Source: a virus
DNA length: 64,000 nt
Reading direction: 5' to 3' (one strand)
Virus record (IMG/VR): IMGVR_UViG_3300017963_000029
Coordinates: 18,688-82,687 of that record
In this document: positions 246 to 61,954 of the stretch, in pieces
Numbering within the stretch: position 1 is the first letter of the stretch
How the letters are laid out: each line of letters begins with the position of its first letter
Translations under genes and position numbers: made by a program
Notes under the pieces: generated by a model
What the model saw: the letters and a program-made list of their open reading frames with translations, nothing else
Told to the model about the DNA's origin: nothing
The model's database searches: none

Positions 246-278
246 GCAGCACCCATTTTTCCCCTGTAGGAGAAAGAC

Positions 279-704
279 ATGCCCGAAACCAACGCAAAAT
301 ATCTCTGTCCGATCGGCAGGGACCGGATCGTCTCGTTCGTGAGCAACAACGGCGCCCCCGTTCCGGAAATCATGGAACAGACGTACTACAACGAGGCCCA
401 GAACAGCGGCGGTGCCCGGAAGGGCAACCGCAAGATCTCCGCTCTGGTCGAGATCTACGAGGAGATCCCGCGCCAGACCGACGACACCATCCTGAAGATG
501 ACGGTCAAGGTTCCCGCCGGTATCATCTCTCCGCACGTTCAGAGATTCGCGGCCAGCACCCCGCGGCTCTACTACTACCCGCAGGTGATCCTGTCGCCGT
601 ACAGCCTGGACTTCCATCCCCAAGGAGTATGGGGAGAGGTTGAAGTAGGATCCGAAGATCCCGACGAACAACGGTCGAGGTTTGGCTTCACCAGCTCCTG
701 GTGA
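279..704 (+). CDS. putative virion protein (C-terminus may extend to 766 by frameshift)
   Basis: Strong RBS AGGAGAAAGAC-ATG; beta-rich; heads the structural-like cluster. Confidence 0.55.
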   Translation: MPETNAKYLCPIGRDRIVSFVSNNGAPVPEIMEQTYYNEAQNSGGARKGNRKISALVEIYEEIPRQTDDTILKMTVKVPAGIISPHVQRFAASTPRLYYYPQVILSPYSLDFHPQGVWGEVEVGSEDPDEQRSRFGFTSSW

Positions 705-2028: not shown

Positions 2029-2047
2029 CCGGTAACAGGAGAAAGAC

Positions 2048-2659
2048 ATGTCAAAACAGGACGCGAAGTGGATTAAGAAGGATGACGTAACCCTCGAAGG
2101 CGACGGCGCAGGCAGTAGCGGAAACCTCCGCGTCAAGGATGACGGCATCGACGAGAACAAGATCAACTCGTCGTCGCTTCTCACCAACGGCGGTCTGAAC
2201 GGAGGCAGCGGTACCAAGCTGTCCCTGGACATCACTGACCTAACTGATGGTTCCGCAGTTGCCGACGATGACCAACTCGCCATCTACGACCAGGACGCCG
2301 GGGGCCACCGCCGCGTCACCAGAGCAGAACTTCTGGCCGGTGCCGCGACCGAACAGAAGATTCAGGAGATGATCACCATCGCTGCCGGGGATATTACCGC
2401 CGGATACTTCAGCCTGGCCAACGACCCGGTGAACAAGGGCTGCGTCAGCGTTACCCCGGTCGGAGGCCCCCAGCAGGTAAACTACGACTCGGTCGGTGGC
2501 ACCGGAGCCACGCCCGACTTCGACCTGGACGACTTCGCCACCACCCCCAAACGGGTGAAGATCAACTCGGACGGAACCGACGGTTCCCCCAACCTTCAAC
2601 CCGCCGCCAACATGGATTGGACTGCGGGTGACGTCGTCATCGTCGAATACGAAATCTAG
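2048..2659 (+). CDS. putative fibre/decoration protein
   Basis: LRVKDDGI..KI, GGLNGGSG and DQLAIYD..AGGHRRVT fibre repeats; RBS AGGAGAAAGAC. Confidence 0.6.
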   Translation: MSKQDAKWIKKDDVTLEGDGAGSSGNLRVKDDGIDENKINSSSLLTNGGLNGGSGTKLSLDITDLTDGSAVADDDQLAIYDQDAGGHRRVTRAELLAGAATEQKIQEMITIAAGDITAGYFSLANDPVNKGCVSVTPVGGPQQVNYDSVGGTGATPDFDLDDFATTPKRVKINSDGTDGSPNLQPAANMDWTAGDVVIVEYEI

Positions 2660-6822: not shown

Positions 6823-7221
6823 ATGCTAGGCCAGTACATACGAGGATGTCCCTCTTCCGTGCGTCGACTTGTATTTGCTGTACGCAGAGCATTATCCGAG
6901 GAGCTTCGGCGCCCGAAATATCGGGGACACCCTGTTCGATCCGCCGGCCACTGCTACGTGGCCTCCGAGGCGCTCTACCACCTGCTGGGGGGTAAGAAGG
7001 CCGGATGGGTGCCTCGCCGTGTTCAACACGCCGGCGATACCCACTGGTACCTGGTCCATTCCTCCGGGTGTACGGTCGACGCGACCAGCGACCAGTTCTG
7101 TACCCCGGTCCCGCGCCATCTTGCTCGCGGTGCTGGCTTCCTGACAAAACGTCCTTCAAGAAGGGCACAGATCATCATGCAAAGAGTACGTAACCGTGGA
7201 CGCCGATCGCATCACGCATAA
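6823..7221 (+). CDS. papain/transglutaminase-like (YunG-like) protein
   Basis: Candidate triad GHCYVASEALYH ... THWYL ... VDATSDQF. Confidence 0.5.
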   Translation: MLGQYIRGCPSSVRRLVFAVRRALSEELRRPKYRGHPVRSAGHCYVASEALYHLLGGKKAGWVPRRVQHAGDTHWYLVHSSGCTVDATSDQFCTPVPRHLARGAGFLTKRPSRRAQIIMQRVRNRGRRSHHA

Positions 7222-7621
7222 CCTGTATCTCGGAGGCGCCCCAAAGTCCTGCGGGCCGTTCGACACGGTGGTCCTCGCTGCCGAGGAGCTCCAGGACATC
7301 CCTCTGAACTGCCAGGTGATCCACGCTCCTCTGGACGACGCCGTCCCCACCCCGGACGAGGTGAAGACGGCCATCTACACCGCGCGAGCCGTGCGTCTCC
7401 TCCGCCGGCGCGGGCAGAAGGTGCTGGTCACCTGCGCCCAGGGAATCAACCGGTCGGCTCTGATCGTGGCCCTGTCGCTGATGATGGACGGCGCCTCCGC
7501 CAGCGAAGCTATCCACAAGATACGCTCCCGGCGCCGGGGGACAATGATGCCTCCGCTTTCCAACCGGGCTTTCGTGAAAACGCTCAAGAGATATGAGAAG
7601 ATGAGGAGACGCCATGCCTGA
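7196..7621 (+). CDS. dual-specificity/tyrosine phosphatase
   Basis: NLYLGG, APLDD, CX5R loop VTCAQGINRSA. Confidence 0.85.
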   Translation: MDADRITHNLYLGGAPKSCGPFDTVVLAAEELQDIPLNCQVIHAPLDDAVPTPDEVKTAIYTARAVRLLRRRGQKVLVTCAQGINRSALIVALSLMMDGASASEAIHKIRSRRRGTMMPPLSNRAFVKTLKRYEKMRRRHA

Positions 7622-8516
7622 ATTCAAACAAGGAGACATCGTTCGCCACACCGGGAAGTTCCTGCGGTCGATCGGTATGTATGCCGGCGCCCCCATCAAC
7701 GGCCAGGTGGTGGGTTTCAAGAAGATGGCAGGGCGCCCCTGGCCCGTGGTCGAATGGAGCGACGAGGACTGGGGCACCAAGATGATCAACCCGGCGAACA
7801 TCGAACTGGACCCCAGGTACGCTCGACAGAAAGGACGACCGGCTCCTCCGGTACACTTCGACGACATCGCCCCTCCGACGATAATGTACTCCGCGCCCGA
7901 CGGTCTCGGAGATGAAGACTCCCGGTGGTTCAAGGTCCATTGGGTCGCCGGATCCTATGCTGGCGTGCGTGAGGTCCAGGCTGAAGACGGAGAAGAAGCA
8001 AAAGCCAAGGTACGCGCCTGGGTCCGTAAGCAGATGGCGATCCCCCAGTACTACGAGTCGTACCGGGTCGAGGAGCTCGACGGACTTGAGAACGTGGAGC
8101 GAAACTACACCGTCTCGGTCCTGGGTGTCGAAGGAACGTACCGGCGCCCCCACCTGACTCTGGAAGAAGCAAAAAAGTACGTGCAACAACTGAAGACCCG
8201 GTTGTCTCCCGCCTGGCAGGATAAGATCCGCGTCTACTACCGGGACGGCTCCGAGGTATCTCTCGATGGACTCGGGGGTCACCGCTACAAGCGCCCGCCT
8301 CGCGTCGGTACCCGCGTCCGCTTCACCCCCAACCCGGCGAGCCTGCAGCTGTACTCCAACCCTCCTGCCGAAGGAGAAGAAGGCGAGGTTACCACCATCG
8401 CCGGCCCCCGCGGCCAGATGTCCTTCATGCGCGGCCCGGGTGGAGGCCTCGTCTACGTGGACTGGGACGACCACGGACCGATGGGTGTGAGCCTGTACGA
8501 CATCGAAAGGGCCTGA
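7614..8516 (+). CDS. four-module protein with DGL linkers (candidate polyprotein)
   Basis: DGL at aa 96, 156 and 218; terminal modules SH3-like. Confidence 0.65.
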   Translation: MPEFKQGDIVRHTGKFLRSIGMYAGAPINGQVVGFKKMAGRPWPVVEWSDEDWGTKMINPANIELDPRYARQKGRPAPPVHFDDIAPPTIMYSAPDGLGDEDSRWFKVHWVAGSYAGVREVQAEDGEEAKAKVRAWVRKQMAIPQYYESYRVEELDGLENVERNYTVSVLGVEGTYRRPHLTLEEAKKYVQQLKTRLSPAWQDKIRVYYRDGSEVSLDGLGGHRYKRPPRVGTRVRFTPNPASLQLYSNPPAEGEEGEVTTIAGPRGQMSFMRGPGGGLVYVDWDDHGPMGVSLYDIERA

Positions 8517-8518
8517 CC

Positions 8519-8872
8519 ATGAGGCGCGTCGGATTCACAATCGAAAAAGAGACCTACGAAGAACAACGAGAAGCCGGTCGCTACAACCCCGGCCTGGTCG
8601 TTCTCTTCAGAGATCGAACAGGAAACCACCGCGTCCACATCGGAGCCGGCTACTCCGACGACGTCGAGGTCTACCGAGAAGGCGAAGAGACCTTCATCCT
8701 GAGCAAGAACTGGCGACTCGGCTACGTGGGGTTGGAGATCTACCGGGGTTCCCGGCACATCGGGGAGATGTTCCTGCAGAACAGCCAGGACATCGACGAG
8801 ATACTCGGCCCCCAGGGCCTGGACCTCGCGGACTACAACATCATCAAACGCATGGCGCAGTACATCGACTGA
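8519..8872 (+). CDS. hypothetical protein
   Basis: Tightly packed ORF, phage codon usage. Confidence 0.6.
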   Translation: MRRVGFTIEKETYEEQREAGRYNPGLVVLFRDRTGNHRVHIGAGYSDDVEVYREGEETFILSKNWRLGYVGLEIYRGSRHIGEMFLQNSQDIDEILGPQGLDLADYNIIKRMAQYID

Positions 8873-9258
8873 TGCCCTTCCTCCCCTCCAAGAAATGGAT
8901 CAAGACACGCGCCGCGTGGCGTGGGGCGGTGTTGGCTCAGATCCGGGAGTGGGCCGAAGACCGGGGCGACCTCTACGACAAGGCCACGCACAACGTGGCT
9001 GTGCGCCGCCTGGAGCGGTTGGAGATGCTCGAACGCGTCCTGCGTCCGAAGGAGCACTTCAAGCTGGGTTGGCCATATGATCCTGCCGACGCGGCGGCGA
9101 TGATCGTGTTGCCCCGGCGGAAAGCTAGAAAGTTGGCGCACTCCTTCTTCGGGGAGCAAGTATACGAAAACGGAAAACCCGTAGACGTCGACTACGATGT
9201 CGCGGACGCGTGGTTGAAGAAGTTCAACCTCGACTGGTTCGATCCGGGGGAGTACTGA
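8872..9258 (+). CDS. hypothetical protein
   Basis: TGATG coupling on both sides. Confidence 0.6.
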   Translation: MPFLPSKKWIKTRAAWRGAVLAQIREWAEDRGDLYDKATHNVAVRRLERLEMLERVLRPKEHFKLGWPYDPADAAAMIVLPRRKARKLAHSFFGEQVYENGKPVDVDYDVADAWLKKFNLDWFDPGEY

Positions 9259-9809
9259 TGCGACCATATCCTCAACAACGTGAGCAGATCTACCTGGGAG
9301 GCCTCGAGGCCGTGCGCCGGCGGCGCCGGAAGGTCTGCACGTCGCGCCGGTACAAGTATGCCTGGATGCGGATCGAACCCTGCGTCGAGATGCCCGAGAG
9401 CGACGAAGAGGTCCCGAAGATCGTCTCGTCGAAAGCCGCCAACGAGTTTATCCACGAGGCGGTGCCTTTCGCCGGCAGACCTGGTGAACACTTCATGGTG
9501 GTGTGCCTGAACAACAAGAACGTGCCCATCGCGGTGGCGGTGCCCTTCATCGGCGGGCGCAACTCCTCCGTGGTCGACAAGTCCATCGTCTTCCAGGCAG
9601 TGCTGCTCGCCGGGTCGGTGGCATTCTTCGTTGCGCACAACCACCCGAGCAACGAGACCACCCCAAGCCCGGAAGACGTTGCGCTGTCGCGGAGCCTGAA
9701 AAGGGCCTCCGAGCTTCTGGGTCTTACCTTCCTCGACTCGCTGGTCGTCACCGACGACCCCGGCGAGTACGCGAGCCTGCTCGACATGGGGTTGCTGAGC
9801 GGCGAATAA
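9258..9809 (+). CDS. RadC-like JAB/MPN domain protein
   Basis: EHFMVVCLN, AHNHPSNETTPSPED, FLDSLVV. Confidence 0.85.
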   Translation: MRPYPQQREQIYLGGLEAVRRRRRKVCTSRRYKYAWMRIEPCVEMPESDEEVPKIVSSKAANEFIHEAVPFAGRPGEHFMVVCLNNKNVPIAVAVPFIGGRNSSVVDKSIVFQAVLLAGSVAFFVAHNHPSNETTPSPEDVALSRSLKRASELLGLTFLDSLVVTDDPGEYASLLDMGLLSGE

Positions 9810-9835
9810 TAACCCTCACAGGTCAGGAGAAAGAG

Positions 9836-10138
9836 ATGCCACCTTCAAAGAGAATACCCACCAGAGCGACCCGGGAGTTCGTCGCGGCCCTGCAGGAGTT
9901 CACCGCTGCCACCCTGAAGCTCGACGAAGCCTGGCAGAAAGCATGGGAGGATCTAGCTCCGGATTACGGTGCAGAAGGATACCCCGAGAGCTTCAAGGGC
10001 AGCTTCGAGGACATCTCGCTTGAGGTCATCTGGTGGAAAGAAGCCCAGGAGTTGGTCAACAACATCCCGCACAAGTACCCCCGGCCCAACCCGCGCATCG
10101 GGATGCAGACGTTGAAGATGAGAGGACGACAGCGTTAA
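9836..10138 (+). CDS. hypothetical protein
   Basis: RBS CAGGAGAAAGAG-ATG. Confidence 0.6.
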   Translation: MPPSKRIPTRATREFVAALQEFTAATLKLDEAWQKAWEDLAPDYGAEGYPESFKGSFEDISLEVIWWKEAQELVNNIPHKYPRPNPRIGMQTLKMRGRQR

Positions 10139-10229
10139 CCCCACCCTGTGCCGACCGTATCAGTGTTCCGGGATTGGGGATGTACCCGACCACCACGGCC
10201 GGCACGGGTCACCTCCTCCATAGCAAAAA

Positions 10230-10382
10230 CGGCTCCCCCGCACCATACGGAGGAGCCGCTGCGACAATCACAAAACCGTAGAGCCTGCAGCCTACCACAA
10301 AAGCGAAGGCCCCGCACACCGCTCGAGTACGGGGCCTTCTGTACCGGAACCCGCGCCCTCTTCTGTCCGGGGGAGGGGGCGG
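10230..10382. terminator. three tandem GC-rich hairpins between convergent units; two followed by T-runs on the minus strand
   Basis: Stems 10230-36/10252-58, 10305-14/10330-39, 10351-60/10373-82. Confidence 0.5.
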
Positions 10383-11054: not shown

Positions 11055-11140
11055 TTTGACCCTCCGGTTTTCAACATTACTGTAAATTAAGGCTCTACTT
11101 AAGACGGACTCTGGTTTTTGAGCACCTATTCACCATTTAC

Positions 11141-11500
11141 GTGCCGCATGTGCCGCGAAACCCATGTAAGTATTTTCTTACGTGCCGCAAGTGCCACGCC
11201 GCGGCACTTGCGCGGCACTTGCGCGGCACTTGCGCGGCAGGTCTTTATTTTGTAATAACATACGTTTATCTAATTGCGGCACATGCGGCACATCAATTTC
11301 AGCTCTTCACAAAATTTGATCTTCGAAATTCAATTTAAATTACCGTGTATAAGGAACGTGCCGCATGTGTCGCAATTAGATAACCTAGTGAAATTGTTGT
11401 AGAAGTACCTGCCGCGCAAGTGCCGCGCAAGTGCCGCGCAAGTGCCGCGGGCACACAAACGTATTAACGATGTATACATGCCGCAAGTGCCGCGGGCAGC
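11141..11500. repeat. palindromic iteron array, probable replication origin
   Basis: Perfect 44-bp inverted repeat 11199-11242 / 11407-11450 built from 11-bp GCGGCACTTGC units; second inner inverted repeat; AT-rich centre; abuts the primase-helicase stop. Confidence 0.75.
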
Positions 11501-11507
11501 TTTAAAT

Positions 11508-13985
11508 TCAGTTGAGCTTGAAATCTCCGGGGTCATTCGGATCCCCTTGCTGGGCCTTTATGAGACGGGCCTTCGGAGATGATTCGTGCCTCTCCTGCGG
11601 GGTCTTGATCCGGAGTCCGAGAAAGCCTCTGACGCCACTGTGCAGCTTGTGGTCCGGGTATCGCTTGCGCATGGCGACGTAGAACCTCTTGCGCTGATGG
11701 AAGACCTTATTACGGCTGTCCTCCGCGTACTCGAGGTAGGCCGCCCAGGCGATGTCGCGCGGTACGAAAAGCTCCGGACCCTCGATGAACCACTGGTCGA
11801 TGAAGGGCTGCAGAGGGTCCTGCTCGCGGCGGTAGTCTTCGGTCGCCATCTCCACCGCCTCCGGGGTGGGAAGACCTTTCTCGCGCCACAGGACGGCCTC
11901 GCGCGCGATGCGGGTCCAGATGCCCGGGATCTCCTGGCGGAGCTTCTGAGGGAGATCTCGGTCCTCCTTGCCGCGAAACGAGGCGTTCCACGGGATGACC
12001 TTGAGCCGGCGCCAGATGCCCTCGTCGGTACCGCGGACGTGCGGCAGCTGGTTGGCGCTCACCCAGAGTTGATATTCGGGCACGTAGGTCCACTCGTCCT
12101 CGCGCATCTTCCTGCCGGTGATGGGGTCGCTGCCGGTGAGTTCCTTGATCAGCGACTCCGCGAGCGCCTTCCCCTCCTCCACCTCCTGGGCGGTCACGAG
12201 CCTCTTGCCGAAGAACGACATCCGCCACGTCTCGTGCTTCTCGGCACCCTTGTTGGTGAGCAGATTTTTGCTGTTGGCGGCGAAGGCGTAACCGCCGATA
12301 CCAATGCCGAAAGCCTCGATGATAGCGTTCATGAAGGTGGTCTTACCGTTGGCGCCTTCACCGATGTTGAGGACCAGGATCTGCTCCGTGGTCACCCCTA
12401 CGGCGGTGTAGCCGAGCAAGCGCCAGATAAAATCCACCAGACCGCGGTTACCCTGCATGCACTCGGACAGGAATCGGTCGAAGGTCGGGCAGGTGGCATT
12501 CGGGTCGAACTTGTGCGGCGCGAGGCGCGTGATGTAGTCCTTGCGGTTGTGCTCGCGCAGCTGCCCGGTGCGAAGGTCGAGCGTACCATTCAGGAAGTTG
12601 AACACCCACGGATCCCTGTTCAGCTGGGTATATGAAATGAGAATGTCTCGGTCGGTGGCGGCGAGAGCGGCGCCGGCCGAGACCTTGTTGCGCGTCTCGC
12701 TCTGCTTGGCGAACTTCAGGATCTCCTCGATTATTTTGTCGAGCCGTTTGTACTTCTCCTCCGCCAGGTCCATTACTTCCGGACTGACGTTAGGATCTTC
12801 ATTTAATTTTTCAAACTCTTTTTTGGCGATCCACCGGTCGTGTCGAAATGCGTCAGCCTCTTCCGGGATGGAGCGCACGGTTTCTTTCATGTGCTCCTGG
12901 ACCAGCGCGCGGCCGGCCTCGAGGTTCCAGAAGGCCCCCTCCCAAACCAACCACCTCTGCCACGTCTCCTCCCATGCCAGATCTTTCTTGTGCCGATCGA
13001 GCAGCCGCTCTCCGAGCCCCATTTCGGTCAGGGGTCGGCTCTTTATCTCGTCGATCTTCGGCGGGTACCAGGGGCGCCCCTTGCCGTCCTCGATGGCACC
13101 CTCCACCTCCTCGATGGCTTTTTCGCGGTACGCCGGCACCGCCGGGTCGTGGGTGTTGCGGTTGTAGCGGTAGTCGAGCGCCGCGATGACCATCTCCCGC
13201 ACCCGTTTCTCTTCGATGAGGTGGGGGATGCCGCGAGCGATACCAAAAACGCCATGGCTCTTCAGGTCGTAGAGCTCGCCGGGGAAGGGTCGGTCGCGTA
13301 TCTCGTCGCAGAGATTATGTAATTTGGCGTCCCAGTAGTCTCGCAGGCCCTCTGTTATCTCGCCGCGGTCTTCCTCCGACAGGCTTTCCTCGTAGTTGTC
13401 GAGCGGTTTTTCTTTCATCCCTTCCGGGAGGGGCAGGCCGAGGACCATGTCCACGCCCAGCCCGGGGCCATCTTCACCGGAAACGCTGTATCGCGCCGGG
13501 TCACCACCGGGCTGGTAGAACATGTGGCAGGGGTCGGCGCACTTCTCGTCCGCGATGCCGTTCAGGCCGAAGTAGTACAGCGCCCGCACAAAGAACGCCG
13601 GCCACTCGGTGATGTCGACGGACCGGGATAACTTCACGATAATGCGGACTTTCAGCTGTCCCTGCGGCTCGTGGCTGAAGCTCGTATAGAGGATGTAGCC
13701 GTACTGTGCCACCTGCTTGAGCGTGGGCTCCAGATCTTTCCAGGTACCCTTGTCGACGTCGAACACCAGAAAGTGGTTGCGCAGGACGTTTACCGCGCAA
13801 CGCCGGACGCCGGCTTCGGCGTACTCCGCCGACATGAAAAGTGGAAGTTGTTCCTTATATTCCGCCGGTATGAATGTGTCTTTCTTGAGGAATTTCTCTA
13901 CCAGCGCGCCGAAGTCAGGCAGCGTTACCTGGTAGTTGACGAATCTGGAGTTGGAGACACAGGCACAACCGGAGAAAATTATCAC
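11508..13985 (-). CDS. primase-helicase (primase-like N-terminus, D5_N, SF3 helicase; P4/D5 family)
   Basis: FDVD, YTSFSH, NFLNGTLDL, Walker A GEGANGKTT, IKELTGSD, DEGIWRR. Confidence 0.9.
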   Translation of the reverse strand: MIIFSGCACVSNSRFVNYQVTLPDFGALVEKFLKKDTFIPAEYKEQLPLFMSAEYAEAGVRRCAVNVLRNHFLVFDVDKGTWKDLEPTLKQVAQYGYILYTSFSHEPQGQLKVRIIVKLSRSVDITEWPAFFVRALYYFGLNGIADEKCADPCHMFYQPGGDPARYSVSGEDGPGLGVDMVLGLPLPEGMKEKPLDNYEESLSEEDRGEITEGLRDYWDAKLHNLCDEIRDRPFPGELYDLKSHGVFGIARGIPHLIEEKRVREMVIAALDYRYNRNTHDPAVPAYREKAIEEVEGAIEDGKGRPWYPPKIDEIKSRPLTEMGLGERLLDRHKKDLAWEETWQRWLVWEGAFWNLEAGRALVQEHMKETVRSIPEEADAFRHDRWIAKKEFEKLNEDPNVSPEVMDLAEEKYKRLDKIIEEILKFAKQSETRNKVSAGAALAATDRDILISYTQLNRDPWVFNFLNGTLDLRTGQLREHNRKDYITRLAPHKFDPNATCPTFDRFLSECMQGNRGLVDFIWRLLGYTAVGVTTEQILVLNIGEGANGKTTFMNAIIEAFGIGIGGYAFAANSKNLLTNKGAEKHETWRMSFFGKRLVTAQEVEEGKALAESLIKELTGSDPITGRKMREDEWTYVPEYQLWVSANQLPHVRGTDEGIWRRLKVIPWNASFRGKEDRDLPQKLRQEIPGIWTRIAREAVLWREKGLPTPEAVEMATEDYRREQDPLQPFIDQWFIEGPELFVPRDIAWAAYLEYAEDSRNKVFHQRKRFYVAMRKRYPDHKLHSGVRGFLGLRIKTPQERHESSPKARLIKAQQGDPNDPGDFKLN

Positions 13986-31962: not shown

Positions 31963-32005
31963 AAGATAACAGTACACTTGCGTAAACGCAAGGAAAGGGT
32001 AGGAT
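31963..32005. promoter_or_regulatory. divergent promoters around a palindromic operator
   Basis: CTTGCGT-AA-ACGCAAG 31977-31992; minus TTGCGT-N17-TATCTT; plus TTGCGT-N16-TAGGAT. Confidence 0.65.
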
Positions 32006-45676: not shown

Positions 45677-45841
45677 CTACTTGCTGCGCTTGCGCTTCAG
45701 GCAGCGTCCGGTGGTCTTGGACACGCCGTGTTTGCAACGCCGCTTCTTGGTGCGCCGTCCCTTGGTGCCCTTCTTCGGGCCGGGCTTGCGCTTACAACCG
45801 CCGGTCTTCTTCCTGCCGTATCGGCACTTCTTGGTGGCCAT
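45677..45841 (-). CDS. Lys/Arg/Cys-rich peptide (54 aa; below ORF-track cutoff)
   Basis: MATKKCRYGRKKTGGCKRKPGPKKGTKGRRTKKRRCKHGVSKTTGRCLKRKRSK; RBS AAGGAGAAAGAC. Confidence 0.75.
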   Translation of the reverse strand: MATKKCRYGRKKTGGCKRKPGPKKGTKGRRTKKRRCKHGVSKTTGRCLKRKRSK

Positions 45842-45915
45842 GTCTTTCTCCTTGGCTCGATTTCGAAAGATCCGGAACGCGGACGCCCCGGGCTCATCGG
45901 GTTACGAAAGAGGTC

Positions 45916-46092
45916 CTACTTCTTCCGCCGGGGGTGCTTGAGGCAGGATCCCTTGAGGGTGCCGCGCTTGGCCACGCCGTACTTGCAGCGCCTCCCCTTC
46001 TTCCGCCGGCCCTTGCTGCCGCTGGTCTTGCCGCGACACTTGGTGAACCGTCCCTTGGACGTCCTGCACAGGTTTCCGCGTACTTTCTTCAT
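45916..46092 (-). CDS. Lys/Arg/Cys-rich peptide (58 aa)
   Basis: MKKVRGNLCRTSKGRFTKC...RRCKYGVAKRGTLKGSCLKHPRRKK; RBS AAGGAG. Confidence 0.75.
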   Translation of the reverse strand: MKKVRGNLCRTSKGRFTKCRGKTSGSKGRRKKGRRCKYGVAKRGTLKGSCLKHPRRKK

Positions 46093-54276: not shown

Positions 54277-54645
54277 TGGTGGAGCCGCCGGGAGTCGAAC
54301 CCGGGTCCAGAAAAGCTCAAAGGCTGCGTCTACGTGCGTGTCTGCTTTTTCGTGTTACCGATGGTAGCAGCGACCAGGGGGCGGCCCGGAGACCACGTCC
54401 ACCACGACCGAAGATCTTGGCTCAAGGCCCGGTCGAACTCCTTGAGTTGCCACCGGCTGATCCACGCCCCGTCGCGAGCCGCCGGCTCTCTCGCGGGGGA
54501 CGCCTAGGCCGCGAGGTCGAGCTTCGCGGCTTCGGAGTTGCCGTTATCGTTGGCGTTTGTGGTTTGGTAACCTTAGTACCCGGGGGTTACCAGCCGGGAC
54601 ACGCAACAGCGTATCTTACTTCCCTGTCGAAACCTTTTCGGCCCC
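54277..54645 (-). ncRNA. ssrA: tmRNA (one-piece, 369 nt)
   Basis: 5' GGGGCCGAAAAGGTTTCGAC; 3' CCGGGTTCGACTCCCGGCGGCTCCACCA (G3-U pair, T-loop, encoded CCA); tag ANDNGNSEAAKLDLAA* at 54554-54504. Confidence 0.95.
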
Positions 54646-54656
54646 TTCTCCTTTCT

Positions 54657-55999
54657 TCACCTCTCCCACCTCGTGCTGTAATGACGTGAAGGCGTCGATT
54701 TGGCGAAACGCATCATGTACCAGTGGACGATCGCCAGGTACATCGCTGTTAGATCCTTTTTCTCGACGGAGTCGCGGATACTCCCCACCACCGAGTCGAC
54801 GATATTAGAAGCGCCGGCCTGCATGAACGGCTCCCACTCTTCGATATGCAAATTCGACTTGTTGACCGCCACGATTTCCGCGAAGGCATACGAGACTACC
54901 TCGCTTATACGGCGGAGATCCGGACACCGCCCTGCGACTTTTTCGAACGGACGTATCCGGGCCTCGAGAGAAGGCACGCGCTTGTTCATCAGCTGGCTCA
55001 AGAAGCCGTCGACAATGGACACCCACATGAACAACATCTGGCGCTCCAGATGGAGATCCCCCTCCAGGTTGAGGCGATCCATCTCGGACAAAACGTGGTC
55101 CCGTCCTTTCTCGAGGAGGAGTTCCCTCCATTTCGAAACGGGCAGTTTGCCGTAGTGAACATCCTCTATTTCCATGAAGCAGAGATCGACGAGCTCTTCA
55201 ATGAGGGCGACTCTTTTTCTCTTGGTCATGTCTGCTCCTTCTTCAGCTGCTCCACTATACCTCGTGCCTCCTTCTCGGTGTAGCCCTGCCGAACATACTC
55301 CTGGATTTTCTCATCATCGCCCAGAGTAGGTGCCGGCGGCGGTTGTGAACCGTTCTTCCCCTTGGCCTTGCGCTCCATCTTCTGGAACTTCTTCGCCAGA
55401 GTGGCCCAGGCCGGATGTTTCGTGGCCGCGCTCGCATCGCCGCCGCGCTGGATGGTCTTCATCATGAAGAGCGCCACCCTCACCTCCTCGATACTGAAGG
55501 TGGTGGCCAGCTGTACGCGTACTCGATTACGGGGTTCGCTCATAACCGGCGTCCTCCATCACCTTCACGATGTCCGGCGGGAACCCCCCGTCCTCTAGCC
55601 ACGCCGCCAGGGTGCGCAGCTTGTAGATGATCTCCTTCTTTTTCTCGACGCGGTTTTCGCCGTCGTCGTTGAGGTCCTCGAGGTCCTCGATTATCTGTAC
55701 GAGCAACGCATTCGGATCCATTATTTATCCTTAAGATATTCTTCCCACACTTCTTCAGGCATATCGTTTTGACCTTCATATAGTTCAGGAAGCCTCTCCG
55801 ATATTTCAGGTATTAGTGCTGGATCATCAACCATCCTTTGACACTTAGGACAATGGCGTTGATTCATATAACTAAAGAAATTTCCGAGAATATACACTTC
55901 ATATTCTGAACTTAAAGCTAAACCACATAACGTGGTTTCTTCCGTCCAACCTATATGGACTACTTGCGTTTCTGGATCTTTTCGCAAAATGGTATTCAC
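54657..55999 (-). other. four hypothetical CDSs upstream of ssrA
   Basis: 54657-55229, 55226-55543, 55527-55721, 55721-55999 (AT-rich, Cys/His motif). Confidence 0.6.
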
Positions 56000-56006
56000 G
56001 GTCCTC

Positions 56007-56123
56007 AGTATAGCCGATTTGCGTAAGCGTGTATAAAAGGTCGTTGACGAAAGTCTAAAAGTTCAGTAAAATCAATAATATAAGTAGTTTTCACTTGCGT
56101 AAACGAATAATGGTGTCTAACCT
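56007..56123. promoter_or_regulatory. divergent promoter region with two operator-like sites
   Basis: Minus TATACT at 56012-56007; plus TTGCGT-N17-TAACCT 56095-56123; motifs at 56018-33 and 56094-109. Confidence 0.55.
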
Positions 56124-56147
56124 GACGTCTGTATAAGTCATGAATAA

Positions 56148-56246
56148 AGGAGGCCAGCGGACCCAGCGGGGTCGGACATTTACCGGATGGAGGTTCATTG
56201 GCATGTCTTTCTCCGTGTCCGACCTCGCTGAACCCGCTGGCCTCCT
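56148..56246 (+). ncRNA. candidate hairpin sRNA with anti-RBS loop
   Basis: 13-bp plus 15-bp stems (one G-U) enclosing a 37-nt loop containing GGCATGTCTTTCTCCG. Confidence 0.55.
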
Positions 56247-56477
56247 GGGCCCATACACCGGAGATGAAAATGAATCGCTGGACTCGGGATAAGGTCATTT
56301 TATGACTATTAAAAAAGTACTAATTTGTAACCGTTGCAAGAAGACCATCACAGTTGCAAAACTACCTAAAACCTGGGCGACTATCACATTAAAACTCCGC
56401 ATCAACTTGAAACAAAAGAAATCCGACATTTGCCCGAAGTGTCTTAAAGCCCATGAAGCTTTTATGAAGGGCACGAA

Positions 56478-56792
56478 ATGAAGTCGTCTTACTTTCGTGA
56501 ACACCCTACAACCGGGATCGTCCACATGGGGCGTACCGAACACACCACCCTGTGTGGCATCCGGTTGTGTGGCTCGTTCAAAAAACAAAGTACATTATCG
56601 TTCGTCGGCAAAAAGATGTGTCGAAACTGCCAGCGCGTTCATCAGAAGGAGGCGAATAAACATAGCCTTTTTCACGGGCTCGAAGAGCGGTGCCGCCGAG
56701 ACGCCGAAGAAAAAATCACACGACTAATCCTTGAAGAACTGGAAGAAGACGAACATGACCAACAAGTGGACCAGGGAGAAGCTCCTCGGTAA
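56478..56792 (+). CDS. small Cys/His protein, paralogue of 55721-55999
   Basis: VH.G.TE.TTLCG...C..CQR. Confidence 0.55.
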   Translation: MKSSYFREHPTTGIVHMGRTEHTTLCGIRLCGSFKKQSTLSFVGKKMCRNCQRVHQKEANKHSLFHGLEERCRRDAEEKITRLILEELEEDEHDQQVDQGEAPR

Positions 56793-57025
56793 TGACGGCA
56801 AGAAGGTCGACGTCCATATGAAGGACGACTACCGCGTCTGCCTGAACATCAATCGCGGGCTCGAGGCCACCGCCGGCGTGGAGGACCGCCACGGCCACCA
56901 CTGGTGGTACGAGGTGTCGCTGATGAACGGCAACGGCACCGAGAAGTACGTGGGTCAGGCCCCAACGCTCAAGGGCGCGAAGAAGCTGGCCACCCAGCAC
57001 GCGAACATCTGAAAAGAAAACCACG

Positions 57026-57331
57026 ATGAGAATGTGGATGGTGAACCCCCGGAAGCTGTGCCGCCAGCACCTGCTGGGAGAACATAACGAGATCCACAAG
57101 TTCGTCGGGGCTCTCAACAAGGATAAGAGCCTGGATGGTTACAAGCCATTCATCGAGATCCACAATCTCCGCGCACGACACGATGCGCTGGTGAAAGAGA
57201 TGCTCCAAAGAGGCTACCGGCACGAATCACCTCTGGCACCCTTCACGAGACGACGCTGGGGTCACATCAACAGAAATCGAGCTTTGATGGACCTGCGGAA
57301 GCGATGCAAAAATTGTTTTAAGCCCTCGTAA
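57026..57331 (+). CDS. pyrimidine-dimer DNA glycosylase-like protein
   Basis: MRMW...LCRQHLLGEH.EIH ... RHDALVKEM..RGY.H. Confidence 0.75.
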   Translation: MRMWMVNPRKLCRQHLLGEHNEIHKFVGALNKDKSLDGYKPFIEIHNLRARHDALVKEMLQRGYRHESPLAPFTRRRWGHINRNRALMDLRKRCKNCFKPS

Positions 57332-57440
57332 TCCTTCACAATTAACTTGCGCTTGCGCAAGTGAATATATAATACTGGACATCCGTCCTTTCTGCGAGGT
57401 TCCTCACGGCCCGACGGGGCCACCAACCGCGGAGAAAGAC

Positions 57441-57878
57441 ATGTCAAGCAAACCTATCGAATCAGTAGCCCAGCTGACACCGCTTTTTCGCAAGGCCTAC
57501 CTGCTCGGAGGTAATGCGATTTTCACCATCGTCAGCAAGGTTAGTTCCTGCCGCTTCACCTACAAGGTGCGGGCCAAGGACGTCGAGAAGGACCGACGCC
57601 TGTATTTCGTCAACGTGCTCACCGGCCCGGAGAACACCAACGACTACCGGTTTATCGGAACCATCTTCCCGGACGGCACGTTCAAGCACGGGTCCCGCAG
57701 CACCATCAGCGCCGACGCCAAGAGCGTGAAGGCCTTCAACTGGTTGTGGACCCACCTCGACGACGAAGAGCGCATCGAGGTCTGGCACAGCGGACGCTGC
57801 TCGCGCTGCCGGCGGCTTCTCACCGACCCCCAGAGCATCGAGCGCGGTATCGGCCCGGTGTGTGCTGGACGAGATTAA
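57441..57878 (+). CDS. DUF6011-like zinc-ribbon protein
   Basis: CSRCRRLLTDPQSIERGIGPVC. Confidence 0.75.
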   Translation: MSSKPIESVAQLTPLFRKAYLLGGNAIFTIVSKVSSCRFTYKVRAKDVEKDRRLYFVNVLTGPENTNDYRFIGTIFPDGTFKHGSRSTISADAKSVKAFNWLWTHLDDEERIEVWHSGRCSRCRRLLTDPQSIERGIGPVCAGRD

Positions 57879-58669: not shown

Positions 58670-61600
58670 ATGCTCATCGCAGAACACGACGACGGGACGG
58701 AAACCCGTGAAGCCACCATCTCCTCCATACGCTGGGAGAAAGCGGGTCGAGCGTGGAAGCTGTTGGCCATGTCCAACGGCGAAACCTGGAAAGGGCAGGT
58801 AGGAGACGTGCTCCCCGGTACCCTGCTCCGCGCCCGCGGCAAGGAGGTCACCAACGAGTATGGCACGGCCTTCGAGGTGCAGGAGGTAAAGAAGTCAGTG
58901 GTGGACACCGCCAGCGGGCTGGCCGCATGGTTGGCCTACCGCCTTCCCCAGGTGGGAGCGGAACGGGCTGAGAGGCTCGTAGACCTCTTCGGGGACGATC
59001 TCCTGAACACCATCGAGAACAACCCCCAACAGCTGACCCGGGTGAGCGGCATCACCCCGGAGCGGGCCCAGCAGATCTCGAAAATCTACCTCAACTACAA
59101 ACTCGAGCAGCAGCTCGTCACCCGGCTGGTCGACGCCGGCCTGAAGATGGGGCTGGCCATGAAGGCCTACAAGGAGTACGGCGAGCACCTGCAAGACGTT
59201 CTGAAGGCCGACCCCTACACCTTGATGTACGTCGAGGGCATCACCTTCGCCAATCTGGACCCGGTGTGCCTGAACCTCGGCATCAACGAGAAGGACCACC
59301 GCCGGGTCCGGGCCTACGCCGTGTTTCTGCTGCTCAAAGAACTGAACGAGGGCCACTGCTACCTGCCGCGCCTGGAGTTGCTGGGCCACATCTCCAAGTG
59401 GGGCTTCTCCTACCAGGAGGCCGCAGACATCCTCGCATCCTCCGACCGCCTGGTCCTGCGCGAGAACGAGATCTTGCTGTCCGAGATCGATCTGGCCGAA
59501 GTTATCGTTACCCGACGCGTTATTTATATGCTCGAGCGCCCTAATCTCGTCCTCAAGCGCGAACCCGAGATCCCCGACTGGTACGACCCGGAGCAGAAAG
59601 CGGCCATTCTAGGCCTGATGACAGCTCCCATCAGCATCATGACCGGAGGCCCAGGTACGGGAAAGACAACATGCTTGCTGGCCGCCATGGACGCCATGGA
59701 AGCCCGCGGCGAGCTCATCAAGTGCGCCGCCCCCACCGGGAAGGCAGCGAAGCGGATGACGGAGGTGTGTGGGCGCGAGGCTACCACCATCCACCGGCTG
59801 CTGGGCTGGAAGCCCGACGGCTGGGAGCACACCTCCACCAACCCGCTCGAGGCTAACGTTGTGGTGATCGACGAGGCTTCCATGGTCGACATCCAGCTGG
59901 CGGCATCTCTGTTGGACGCTATCGGCAACGCCCGCCTCATCATCGTCGGTGACAGCGACCAGCTGCCTCCGGTGGGACCGGGACAACCTCTTTTCGATCT
60001 ACTCGAATCCGCAACCATCCCCACCTTCCGGTTGATGACGGTCCACCGCCAGGCCGGCGACTCCTGGGTCTGCGACAACGCCTACAAGATCATCGAAGGC
60101 GAGAAACCGGATCTGCGCGAGACCCCGGACTTCGAGTTTGGGCAGTTCGAGGAGAGCGAGGCCATCGTGCAGGTGGCCATTCATCTGTCCAAGAAGTTCC
60201 CCGACATCCAGATCCTGACCCCCGAGCACAAGAAGGGTGCCGGGACGGTGAACCTGAACCTCGCCATCCAGGCTGCGCTCAACCCCCACGACGAATTGGA
60301 CGATCACATATCGGCCAACAACTATCGCATCTTCGAGGGCGACAAGGTGTTGTACACCAAGAACAACAAGGACAACGGGCTCGTGAACGGAGACATCGGC
60401 TACGTCCGACAAGTCAACGTCAGGGGTGTCGACACCCTGGCGTATGTCGAGTTCGACGGCCTTTACGACGAGAACCACCCCTTCGGGTGGTTTCTGTTGA
60501 AAGGCCGCGCGGACCTGGAGCCCCTGACGTTGGCCTACGCCATGACGGTCCACAAATGTGTGACTTCTGACACTCTGGTTGGACTACAACGACACGGTGT
60601 AGTGACCATGGAAGAACTGGTCCATGAAAACTATACCGATAAAATACAAACTACCAAAGGTTTTCTTCCTTTTGAAAATGCTTTTCTTTCCGCCGAAAAA
60701 CGCCCTTGCATAAAGATAACAACAAAAGATGGTTACGAACTAACCGTTACTCCTGATCATAAGATGAAGGTGTGGGGAGGATATGGTTACACACTAAGAA
60801 AAACCGAAGATCTAAAAATAGGCCAATTCTTACGTCTGGCCCTTCACTGGGACAGCGGTCAAGTTCAAGAACTACCTCCTCTTCCTGCTGGAGACATTCG
60901 TTCAAAACGCCATCGAGTGCCTCGTTATCTTTTATCAGAAGCCGCCGAATTCTTCGGATTGATGGTAGCCGATGGGACACTGTACGCAAAAGGTTTTCGG
61001 TTAGCCAAACGTCATAAAGACGTCGTAGATAGATTCTGCAAACTATGTTCAAAACTCTTCCACAAAAAACCAAAACGCTGGTTCGAAAACGGAGCTTATT
61101 TTGCTGAAGTAAACTCCGTTCGCCTTGCCGACTGGCTTCGACTTATCGGAGGAATGAACCCTAACAAAAAAGAAATTCCTCAAGCTATTTTGAAATCCGC
61201 AAAAATGGAACAAGCGGATTTTCTTCGTGGTCTATTTGAAGACGGTACAGTAAATGCGGATGAAAAATGGCGGACCCTAGATCACATTGAATGGTCCACC
61301 AAATATGAAAAAATAACTCACCAAGTTCAAATACTTCTTTTGCGTTTTGGTATTATCTCTTCGCGCACTTGCCGAGATGGCCAATGGATCATCTACATCT
61401 ACGGTAAAAACGCCCAACGTTTTTTTAATCCTTATCAAAATACGCGAATAGGTTTTATAAATAAAACCAAAAACAGACGCCTTCAATACACCGCGGGGCG
61501 TGAACAAAACTACCTCATTCCCGTAGATCCATCTTCTTTCCATTGTGACACCTATACCGGTCAAAATGCCCGACAAAGAGGTTATATATCCAGAGCTACA

Positions 61601-61954
61601 GCTGAAGAACTAGGTAACTTTCAAGAGCAACTTAAATTTCATCACGACCGTATCGTCAAACTAGAAACTACCTACGATTACGTTGGGTGTGTTACCGTTC
61701 CTGAACATGGTCGTTTTCTTCAAAACGGATTCGACGGAGGAAACAGTCAAGGCTCGGAGTGGCCCTTCGTCCTCATCATCGCGGACAAGGTTCACTGGTC
61801 TCTTCGCCGGCAACTGCTTTATACTGCTGTTACACGCACGCACGACCGACTGGCCATCGTGGGGTCGGTCGAAGCAATCGAACGCGCCGTGAAACGTCCT
61901 CGCGACACCAACCGCCGCACCCTACTTCGACAGCGACTTACCGGAGGAGCATGA
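58670..61954 (+). CDS. recD2: RecD2-like SF1B helicase containing an intein
   Basis: HhH repeats, GGPGTGKTT, APTGKAAKR, DEASM, VGDSDQL, YAMTVHK|SQGSE, LYTAVTR. Confidence 0.92.
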   Translation: MLIAEHDDGTETREATISSIRWEKAGRAWKLLAMSNGETWKGQVGDVLPGTLLRARGKEVTNEYGTAFEVQEVKKSVVDTASGLAAWLAYRLPQVGAERAERLVDLFGDDLLNTIENNPQQLTRVSGITPERAQQISKIYLNYKLEQQLVTRLVDAGLKMGLAMKAYKEYGEHLQDVLKADPYTLMYVEGITFANLDPVCLNLGINEKDHRRVRAYAVFLLLKELNEGHCYLPRLELLGHISKWGFSYQEAADILASSDRLVLRENEILLSEIDLAEVIVTRRVIYMLERPNLVLKREPEIPDWYDPEQKAAILGLMTAPISIMTGGPGTGKTTCLLAAMDAMEARGELIKCAAPTGKAAKRMTEVCGREATTIHRLLGWKPDGWEHTSTNPLEANVVVIDEASMVDIQLAASLLDAIGNARLIIVGDSDQLPPVGPGQPLFDLLESATIPTFRLMTVHRQAGDSWVCDNAYKIIEGEKPDLRETPDFEFGQFEESEAIVQVAIHLSKKFPDIQILTPEHKKGAGTVNLNLAIQAALNPHDELDDHISANNYRIFEGDKVLYTKNNKDNGLVNGDIGYVRQVNVRGVDTLAYVEFDGLYDENHPFGWFLLKGRADLEPLTLAYAMTVHKCVTSDTLVGLQRHGVVTMEELVHENYTDKIQTTKGFLPFENAFLSAEKRPCIKITTKDGYELTVTPDHKMKVWGGYGYTLRKTEDLKIGQFLRLALHWDSGQVQELPPLPAGDIRSKRHRVPRYLLSEAAEFFGLMVADGTLYAKGFRLAKRHKDVVDRFCKLCSKLFHKKPKRWFENGAYFAEVNSVRLADWLRLIGGMNPNKKEIPQAILKSAKMEQADFLRGLFEDGTVNADEKWRTLDHIEWSTKYEKITHQVQILLLRFGIISSRTCRDGQWIIYIYGKNAQRFFNPYQNTRIGFINKTKNRRLQYTAGREQNYLIPVDPSSFHCDTYTGQNARQRGYISRATAEELGNFQEQLKFHHDRIVKLETTYDYVGCVTVPEHGRFLQNGFDGGNSQGSEWPFVLIIADKVHWSLRRQLLYTAVTRTHDRLAIVGSVEAIERAVKRPRDTNRRTLLRQRLTGGA
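60557..61744 (+). mobile_element. intein with LAGLIDADG homing endonuclease (396 aa)
   Basis: Starts CVTSDT; TPDHK; FFGLMVADG and FLRGLFEDG; ends GGN before Ser; AT-rich. Confidence 0.93.

Follow-up and report, generated by a model that had tools for sequence, protein, structure and literature searches.

Gene content around the hairpin

The analysed window is a stretch of 64,000 nucleotides, bases 18688-82687 of IMG/VR record IMGVR_UViG_3300017963_000029, and all positions are those of the window unless prefixed with G000, which denotes the complete genome. The source record is a complete 82,687-bp genome with direct terminal repeats, from an uncultured marine virus. DNA of the virus was found in only two sequencing runs, a sediment and a seawater metagenome, either of which may be the source sample of the virus; no RNA run was listed as containing it.

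The site under study is a divergent intergenic region of 300 nt that contains a long hairpin (Table 1). To the left of the hairpin are four small leftward genes (55999 down to 54657) and, beyond them, a tmRNA encoded by the virus. The tmRNA is complete (54277-54645, minus strand, Rfam score 120.9 bits), specifies the tag peptide ANDNGNSEAAKLDLAA and is located at the far end of the leftward block of early genes. The rightward operon encodes small zinc-ribbon proteins, a DenV-like glycosylase, a DUF6011 protein and a RecD2-type helicase, and as these are functions of replication and repair we infer that the operon is probably early. The helicase gene (58670-61954, plus strand) is interrupted by an intein with a LAGLIDADG homing-endonuclease domain. 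Paralogous small proteins are encoded on both sides of the divergent promoters (55721-55999, minus strand, and 56478-56792, plus strand); they are 30% identical and have in common G.TE.TTLCG and a CxxC pair, no Pfam family was found for them, and one outside homologue (73%) was found.

The virus belongs to a large group of uncultured viruses whose genomes measure 70-100 kb, and for this group we know of no described regulation. Searches of viral contigs and of metagenome contigs gave no relatives of the flanking proteins, and the flanking-protein search as a whole returned one homologue at 73% identity, plus identical copies on 3 contigs. Relatives of the DUF6011 gene were at most 41% identical, and inverted-repeat scans at their loci gave nothing comparable to the hairpin. 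GenBank phages matched the DenV-like gene only, and the genome-contig search found relatives at 52-66% identity only. One relative, G001 (88.8 kb), has long arrays of a hexamer-based repeat (GGTCGCGGTC/GGTCGTGGTC) at 7069-10340, each preceded by a conserved 'ttttgaaaacg' leader; nothing similar is present in the window virus.

Table 1. Positions of the hairpin, the promoters, the possible reading frames and the tagged gene starts in the window
Feature	Position	Strand	Remarks
Sigma-70-type promoter TTGACG-N17-TAAAAT	56044-56072	+	near-consensus, 10/12 matches; 1 of only 3 such sites in the genome
Leftward promoter TTTACG-N17-TATTAT	56075-56103	-	directed away from the hairpin
Outer stem, 5' arm	56148-56160	+	13 bp, perfect; partner 56234-56246; starts AGGAGG; unchanged in the variant
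Inner stem, 5' arm	56164-56178	+	15 bp; partner 56216-56230; one G-U pair at 56169/56225
Variable apical half	56179-56198	+	conserved GGAGG at 56189-56193; weak pairing with the anti-start segment in the MFE fold
Anti-start segment TGGCATGTCTTTCTCCG	56199-56215	+	reverse complement of SD, spacer, ATG and CCA of the tagged genes
3' arms of inner and outer stems	56216-56246	+	internal loop 56231-56233
Minus-strand 37-codon ORF	56094-56204	-	starts at the tag copy in the loop
Leader ORF, frame B (possible)	56198-56305	+	TTG start (ATG in the variant); TGA stop overlaps the ATG of 56302 as ATGA
Leader ORF, frame A (alternative)	ATG 56203 to TAA 56290-56292	+	S-to-P change in the variant
Tag GGAGAAAGACATG, start of 141-aa gene (279)	269-281	+	15-nt loop match
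Tag, start of 203-aa gene (2048)	2038-2050	+	13-nt loop match
Tag, start of gene for 54-aa basic Cys-rich peptide (45841)	45839-45851	-	13-nt loop match
Tag, start of DUF6011 gene (57441)	57431-57443	+	14-nt loop match; in the rightward operon, 1.2 kb downstream of the hairpin
Local anti-tag GTCCTTTCTGCG	57385-57396	+	in the leader of 57441; predicted to sequester its own tag; MFE -31.2 kcal/mol, z -2.9

A stable hairpin in a predicted leader

The geometry given for the hairpin in the preliminary description (stems of 13 bp and of 15 bp with one G-U pair, and a loop of 37 nt) was reproduced to the exact coordinate. The stems are separated by a 3x3 internal loop, the apex is 37 nt long and the arms contain repeated CCAGCGG units. 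The fold energy (MFE) is -70.2 kcal/mol for the plus strand and -68.2 kcal/mol for the minus strand, the stability corresponds to a z of -8.3, and none of 200 shuffled sequences was as stable. The hairpin is a member of no Rfam family, as a gathering scan of the whole window with Rfam 15 returned the tmRNA only. A loop-plus-stem 25-mer pattern had no match in viral contigs, a scan with the inner-stem palindrome pattern gave 29 matches, all unrelated, and a 19-mer loop pattern matched once in metagenome contigs, at a chance gene start.

The promoter earlier placed before the hairpin, TTGCGT-N17-TAACCT, is weak and absent from the list of our promoter scan, and TTGACG-N17-TAAAAT at 56044-56072 is a much better site. 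From the latter, rightward transcription is predicted to start near 56079, which would give a leader of ~220 nt with the hairpin ~70 nt downstream of the promoter. No promoter-like site was found by the scan on the minus strand upstream of the hairpin. Because the hairpin is located upstream of the leftward promoter and inside the rightward leader, plus-strand hairpin RNA is the form most likely made, and the promoter geometry thus predicts transcription of the same strand as had been proposed.

Downstream of the hairpin the plus strand reads GGGCCCAUAC, without the U tract of an intrinsic terminator, and no terminator was found between the hairpin and gene 56302. The hairpin is therefore better described as a leader element, possibly processed, than as the free-standing sRNA gene it had been taken for, and the missing terminator, which leaves no discrete sRNA end, counts against an antisense sRNA. 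A terminator for the minus strand was also considered and rejected: the hairpin is followed there by UUUAUUCAU, yet it has no converging gene, and the variant described below lacks the tract.

Control by an operator had been claimed as well. The part of this claim that holds is that the TTGCG-type motif recurs at two other intergenic sites; we found no other basis for it. At these two sites (31976-31993 and 57345-57362) the motif forms an operator-like palindrome, ACTTGCG-N4-CGCAAG(T). A half-site, ACTTGCGTAAACG, is present beside the hairpin at 56093-56106, where it overlaps the -35 of the promoter first proposed, and the core ACTTGCG also builds iterons at 11192-11488; the motif looks like a candidate binding motif of a regulator or an initiator. 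A reading of the hairpin as a replication origin was rejected, the genome having a separate iteron array at 11135-11494.

Six gene starts share a cassette that is reversed in the apex

When the loop was compared with the complete 82.7-kb genome, seven exact copies of the 13-mer GGAGAAAGACATG were found. Six are at the ATG of ORFs (141, 203, 145, 54, 199 and 220 aa) and represent true gene starts; the seventh is the hairpin loop, where the 13-mer is on the minus strand. In the window, near-matches to the 13-mer number 6 against an expected 0.09. Among 136 GGAG-spacer-start strings preceding ORFs of at least 50 aa only the tag 13-mer recurs, all others being unique, and the 13-mer is thus more than the consensus ribosome site of this virus. 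The cassette consists of GGAGAAAGAC-ATG, and the loop covers its Shine-Dalgarno sequence (SD), the specific 6-nt spacer and the AUG over 13-17 nt, with segment 56200-56215 being the reverse complement of CGGAGAAAGACATGCC. The match lengths given earlier for genes 279, 57441, 2048 and 45841 were all correct, as were the partial matches at 46092 (11 nt), 45171 (11 nt) and 53823 (10 nt).

It had further been suggested that a primary target could lie elsewhere, and the best loop match was indeed found outside the window, at a 220-aa capsid-like gene (G000 11255-11917, minus strand) with 16 contiguous nt and 19/20 positions overall. The next-longest match is at the neighbour of this gene. The 220-aa protein has >270 homologues at 62-95% identity, many of them encoded by contigs of 70-100 kb. 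Its structural model, which is of low confidence (pLDDT 60), is closest in fold to single jelly-roll capsid proteins (Z 5-7.2, with SPV1 on top at Z 7.2), which is no more than suggestive of a capsid protein. Family searches assigned no family to the tagged genes other than this one and 57441 (DUF6011). The tagged genes had been described as late or virion genes, and this is only partly borne out, weakly by the capsid-like gene and not by 57441, which belongs to the operon classed as probably early. The presence of a tagged gene within that operon blurs a simple early-versus-late logic and counts against an antisense function of the hairpin.

A sigma-70-like promoter, TTGACG-N18-TATTTT (G000 12643-12672, minus strand), precedes the tagged pair formed by the capsid-like gene and its neighbour by about 75 nt; the genome has only three sites of this kind. 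A promoter of this type before the capsid-like pair would give a reason for gating these genes post-transcriptionally. Two of the tagged genes have an upstream anti-tag stretch of their own, GUCCUUUCUGCG for 57441 (57365-57443) and UUUUUCC for 279 (256-281), both predicted to pair with the SD of the same gene. As 57441 and 279 have these predicted anti-tags, the folding suggests that tagged starts are closed by default and built for occlusion.

No repeated start cassette was found in the complete relatives G001 and G002 (64% capsid identity), and the capsid start regions differ in sequence from that of the window virus; the tag is therefore private to the lineage of the window virus. Closer capsid homologues, at 73-95% identity, exist in the protein database.

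Stems and anti-start segment are conserved in a diverged variant

Contigs of these two sequencing runs, the sediment and the seawater metagenome, were aligned to 55400-57600 at 80% likeness, which yielded one variant contig of 400 nt with a depth of 2.7x and 88% identity. Over its first 151 nt this contig can be aligned to 56102-56249, differing by 18 substitutions and a 3-nt insertion; no alignment is possible beyond that. The variant was seen in the two runs with identical figures, and these may be one data set. Homology to the variant ends at 56249, 3 nt past the base of the hairpin (56247-56249), and since it stops there the hairpin may mark a mosaic or recombination boundary between a promoter-hairpin module and the rightward genes.

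The 16 substitutions listed across 56135-56249 are unevenly distributed, with 6 in the unstructured 56135-56147, 1 in the internal loop, 2 in the stems and 7 in the apex. The outer stem has no changes, and the two changes in the inner stem form a compensatory pair (56176 A>G with 56218 T>C) that converts A-U to G-C, so that both stems are kept. All 7 apical substitutions, together with a GAA insertion, are in 56181-56198 and none in 56199-56217. The stem and anti-start positions, which make up 73 of the 115, thus received 2 of the 16 substitutions, both belonging to the compensatory pair (P about 1e-5). Within the 37-nt apex, the 7 substitutions and the indel are all in the 20 nt outside the anti-start segment and 0/17 positions inside it were hit (P 0.0075, or 0.0033 with the indel). 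The variant sequence folds into the same hairpin (-73.4 kcal/mol) with a more open anti-start segment. This pattern indicates that selection acts at the nucleic-acid level on the stems and the anti-start segment, and that it does not act on the peptide of the minus-strand frame. The evidence for conservation consists of one low-depth (2.7x) contig of 400 nt, which limits the antisense reading.

Pairing model and competing explanations

The best reading of these data, to which we give an even chance, is that the hairpin is an antisense element embedded in a leader and pairs with tagged start sites. The structured element would be part of the 5' leader of the rightward early operon, its apex presenting 13-17 nt that are perfectly complementary to the private start cassette. 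The acting species would be the leader RNA itself, or a hairpin processed from it, and it would act on the tagged mRNAs. In the most likely mechanism, pairing of the loop with an mRNA covers the Shine-Dalgarno sequence and the AUG and thereby would exclude 30S subunits. By its complementarity, one RNA may in this way control the translation of a whole set of genes. The predicted duplexes between loop and targets, at -26 to -34 kcal/mol, exceed the cost of opening the loop (6.2 kcal/mol) and the targets (2-11 kcal/mol). This leaves a predicted net of -14 to -24 kcal/mol, the most favourable values being those of the capsid-like gene and its neighbour. What counts against this reading is that most of the anti-start segment is base-paired within the apex in the MFE fold, the unpaired probability being 0.01-0.3 for most bases. 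A cis version is also possible, in which the segment would pair with the ribosome-binding site of 56302 (10/12 positions, by hand alignment only). Regulation could equally run in reverse, with abundant tagged mRNAs shutting off the early operon, since the start codons of a possible leader ORF directly adjoining gene 56302 fall within the complementary stretch as well.

Four alternatives were graded, each as unlikely to some degree. The loop tag could be a seventh gene start, that of the minus-strand ORF of 37 codons (56204 down to 56094) or of a 55-codon form of it, which had been offered as the alternative from the outset. At each of its six other positions the 13-mer marks a genuine start in sense orientation, the frame is open and is kept by the 3-nt insertion of the variant, and SD and AUG would be in the apex of the minus-strand fold. 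Against this, there is no promoter-like site upstream on the minus strand, the leftward promoter being downstream of the ORF start, and the reading frame passes through both promoters. The frame is also poorly conserved: codons of the variant differ by 10 non-synonymous changes versus 1 synonymous, and its predicted product, MPMNLHPVNV... in the reference, reads MPLASLLSENA... in the variant, where nothing but M-P and the residues encoded by the stem persists. No homologue was found among 5.8 billion proteins and the ORF is not on record as a called gene, and we consider it very unlikely to be the reason for the tag copy. Equally improbable is an explanation from the other strand, in which a leader ORF (uORF) starts in the loop, the hairpin gates this uORF and the first early gene coupled to it, and the likeness to the tag is secondary. 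The conserved GGAGG (56189-56193) is correctly placed for such an ORF, in the variant the TTG has become an ATG with an SD spacing of 7 nt, the first 19 residues of frame B are identical there with a sole, synonymous change, and the stop overlaps the ATG of 56302. This explanation, however, does not account for a 16-nt exact reverse-complement identity to the tag (the chance of the 13-mer in 37 nt is about 4e-7). The favoured frame is A in the reference versus B in the variant, homology to the variant breaks off at 56249, well inside the ORF whichever frame is taken, and the 5' arm, which is non-coding in frames A and B, is conserved as well as the 3' arm; a search of frame A against 1.8 billion representatives gave low-complexity matches to long repetitive proteins only. 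Although the device may include a leader ORF, such an ORF leaves the exact identity to the tag unexplained.

The hairpin could also be purely structural, for instance an RNase III site or a 5' stabiliser of the type found in early leaders of T7 and lambda, with the inverted tag as a recombination relic of the capsid start. A long, nearly perfect helix of 28 bp with a symmetric internal loop in an early leader is in agreement with this, as is the match of the loop to the capsid start beyond the tag (19/20 nt), which resembles a copied fragment. A relic should nevertheless decay, and here 17 nt are invariant while the adjacent 20 nt have 7 substitutions and an indel, which makes this explanation unlikely. 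Alternatively, the 13-mer could be a double-stranded DNA site for a phage regulator, with the copy between the divergent promoters as its operator and the inverted repeat as a protein-binding site or cruciform. The stoperators of Cluster A mycobacteriophages, asymmetric 13-bp sites, provide a model for this. The location in a divergent promoter region, the repeated CCAGCGG units in the arms and the further operator-like palindromes nearby all suit a DNA site, and the symmetric compensatory change is also expected of a symmetric protein site. The exact register with the ATG and the presence of an SD in all six genes nonetheless point to the RNA or translation level, half of the 37-bp centre is variable, and G+C-rich arms of 28 bp are unusual in operators. 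We regard a DNA site as quite unlikely.

Comparison with known antisense and leader systems

Control of phage translation by antisense RNA with a single target is exemplified by P1 c4, P22 sar and lambda OOP. If the antisense reading is right, for which we see the chances as balanced, the hairpin would work most like the c4 RNA of P1, without being a member of the c4 family. In P1 and P7, c4 (immI region) is a stem-loop RNA from the transcription unit of its own target, which pairs with the ribosome-binding region and blocks translation (PMC12197685). Similarly, one tagged gene (57441) is located downstream of the hairpin on the same strand, at a distance of 1.2 kb, and loop segments are complementary to start regions, with 13-16 nt perfect at six genes. 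A test with the covariance model of the c4 family (Rfam C4) gave no match, and we found no homology of sequence or structure to the hairpin. The two also differ in that the target of c4 is one operon whereas the loop matches six dispersed genes via a common cassette, and in that the element here is a single long leader hairpin with no known processing site.

Hairpin loops complementary to SD sequences that regulate several mRNAs are known from sRNAs such as RsaE and RNAIII of S. aureus, with their C-rich loops, and the CcsR/Cuckoo RNAs. Those loops are short generic anti-SD motifs serving cellular regulons, whereas the phage loop contains 13-17 nt of a tag private to the virus. Early phage leaders with a long helix and an internal loop are known as well, namely the hairpins processed by RNase III in the T7 R sites and the lambda N leader. 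To our knowledge none of these has a loop complementary to the start sites of other genes.

A parallel in Cluster K mycobacteriophages

A comparable arrangement exists in the start-associated sequences (SAS) of Cluster K mycobacteriophages, which are 13 bp long, asymmetric and private, contain an SD core and are found a few bases from the start codons at 11-19 gene starts (PMC3203893). Pope et al. (2011) described one SAS copy per K1 genome in opposite orientation and not at a gene start, and left open whether RNA or protein is the binder (PMC3203893). From 2011 to 2025 the role of the SAS has been called unknown (PMC3203893, PMC11373665, PMC12699233). The tag of the window virus is likewise an asymmetric 13-mer with an SD core, having six sense copies at starts and one reversed copy in a hairpin loop. 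The SAS motif, GGGATAGGAGCCC, is without ATG and differs in sequence from the tag, and we therefore consider the two to be analogues and not homologues.

In Anaya the reversed SAS copy is in the gp96/gp97 intergenic region, and its complement, CCUCCUAUCC, was placed by RNAfold in the apical loop of a plus-strand hairpin. This hairpin spans 59849-59901 of record JF704106 and its apical loop reads CCUCCUAUCCC. The hairpin region is conserved in 142 phages. In nine aligned Cluster K phages, both stems (10 bp and 6 bp) persist, with a compensatory change at one pair and several G-U transitions, and the loop is invariant in 7/7 aligned phages of the genus Anayavirus, which we took as subcluster K1. 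Amgine and Ekdilam have a degenerate version of the loop, and Yuna and SirPhilip have none. Covariation between loop and SAS in Cluster K was looked for and not found, and the SAS of Amgine is unchanged despite its degenerate loop. The parallel is therefore not universally maintained, given the degenerate loop of Amgine and the two K phages without a loop. In the Cluster K literature searched we found no mention of the hairpin.

In Adephagia, late transcription was reported to begin in the same intergenic region (PMC11373665). The SAS mark non-structural genes and their reversed copy is at a late start, which is the mirror image of the layout in the window virus. Set against the SAS rule of non-structural genes only, the classes of tagged genes are one capsid-like gene (by the low-confidence model) and one DUF6011 gene of the early operon. 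A more general possibility is that viruses have repeatedly adopted a single antisense loop to control the translation of a whole gene class, as a mutual early/late toggle. A gene set would then share a private SD-spacer-ATG tag, and its complement would be presented by a leader hairpin of the opposite temporal class. This broader idea is tentative, and we consider it somewhat doubtful.

Implications

If the preferred reading, an antisense element in the early leader, is true, a private start tag and one complementary loop would together make up a compact switch at the level of the ribosome for a whole class of genes. Such a switch would be independent of promoters. A shared private tag combined with a single loop would go beyond the single-target antisense control known from phages. 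The finding also gives a testable hypothesis for the SAS of Cluster K, whose phages can be engineered in Mycobacterium smegmatis.
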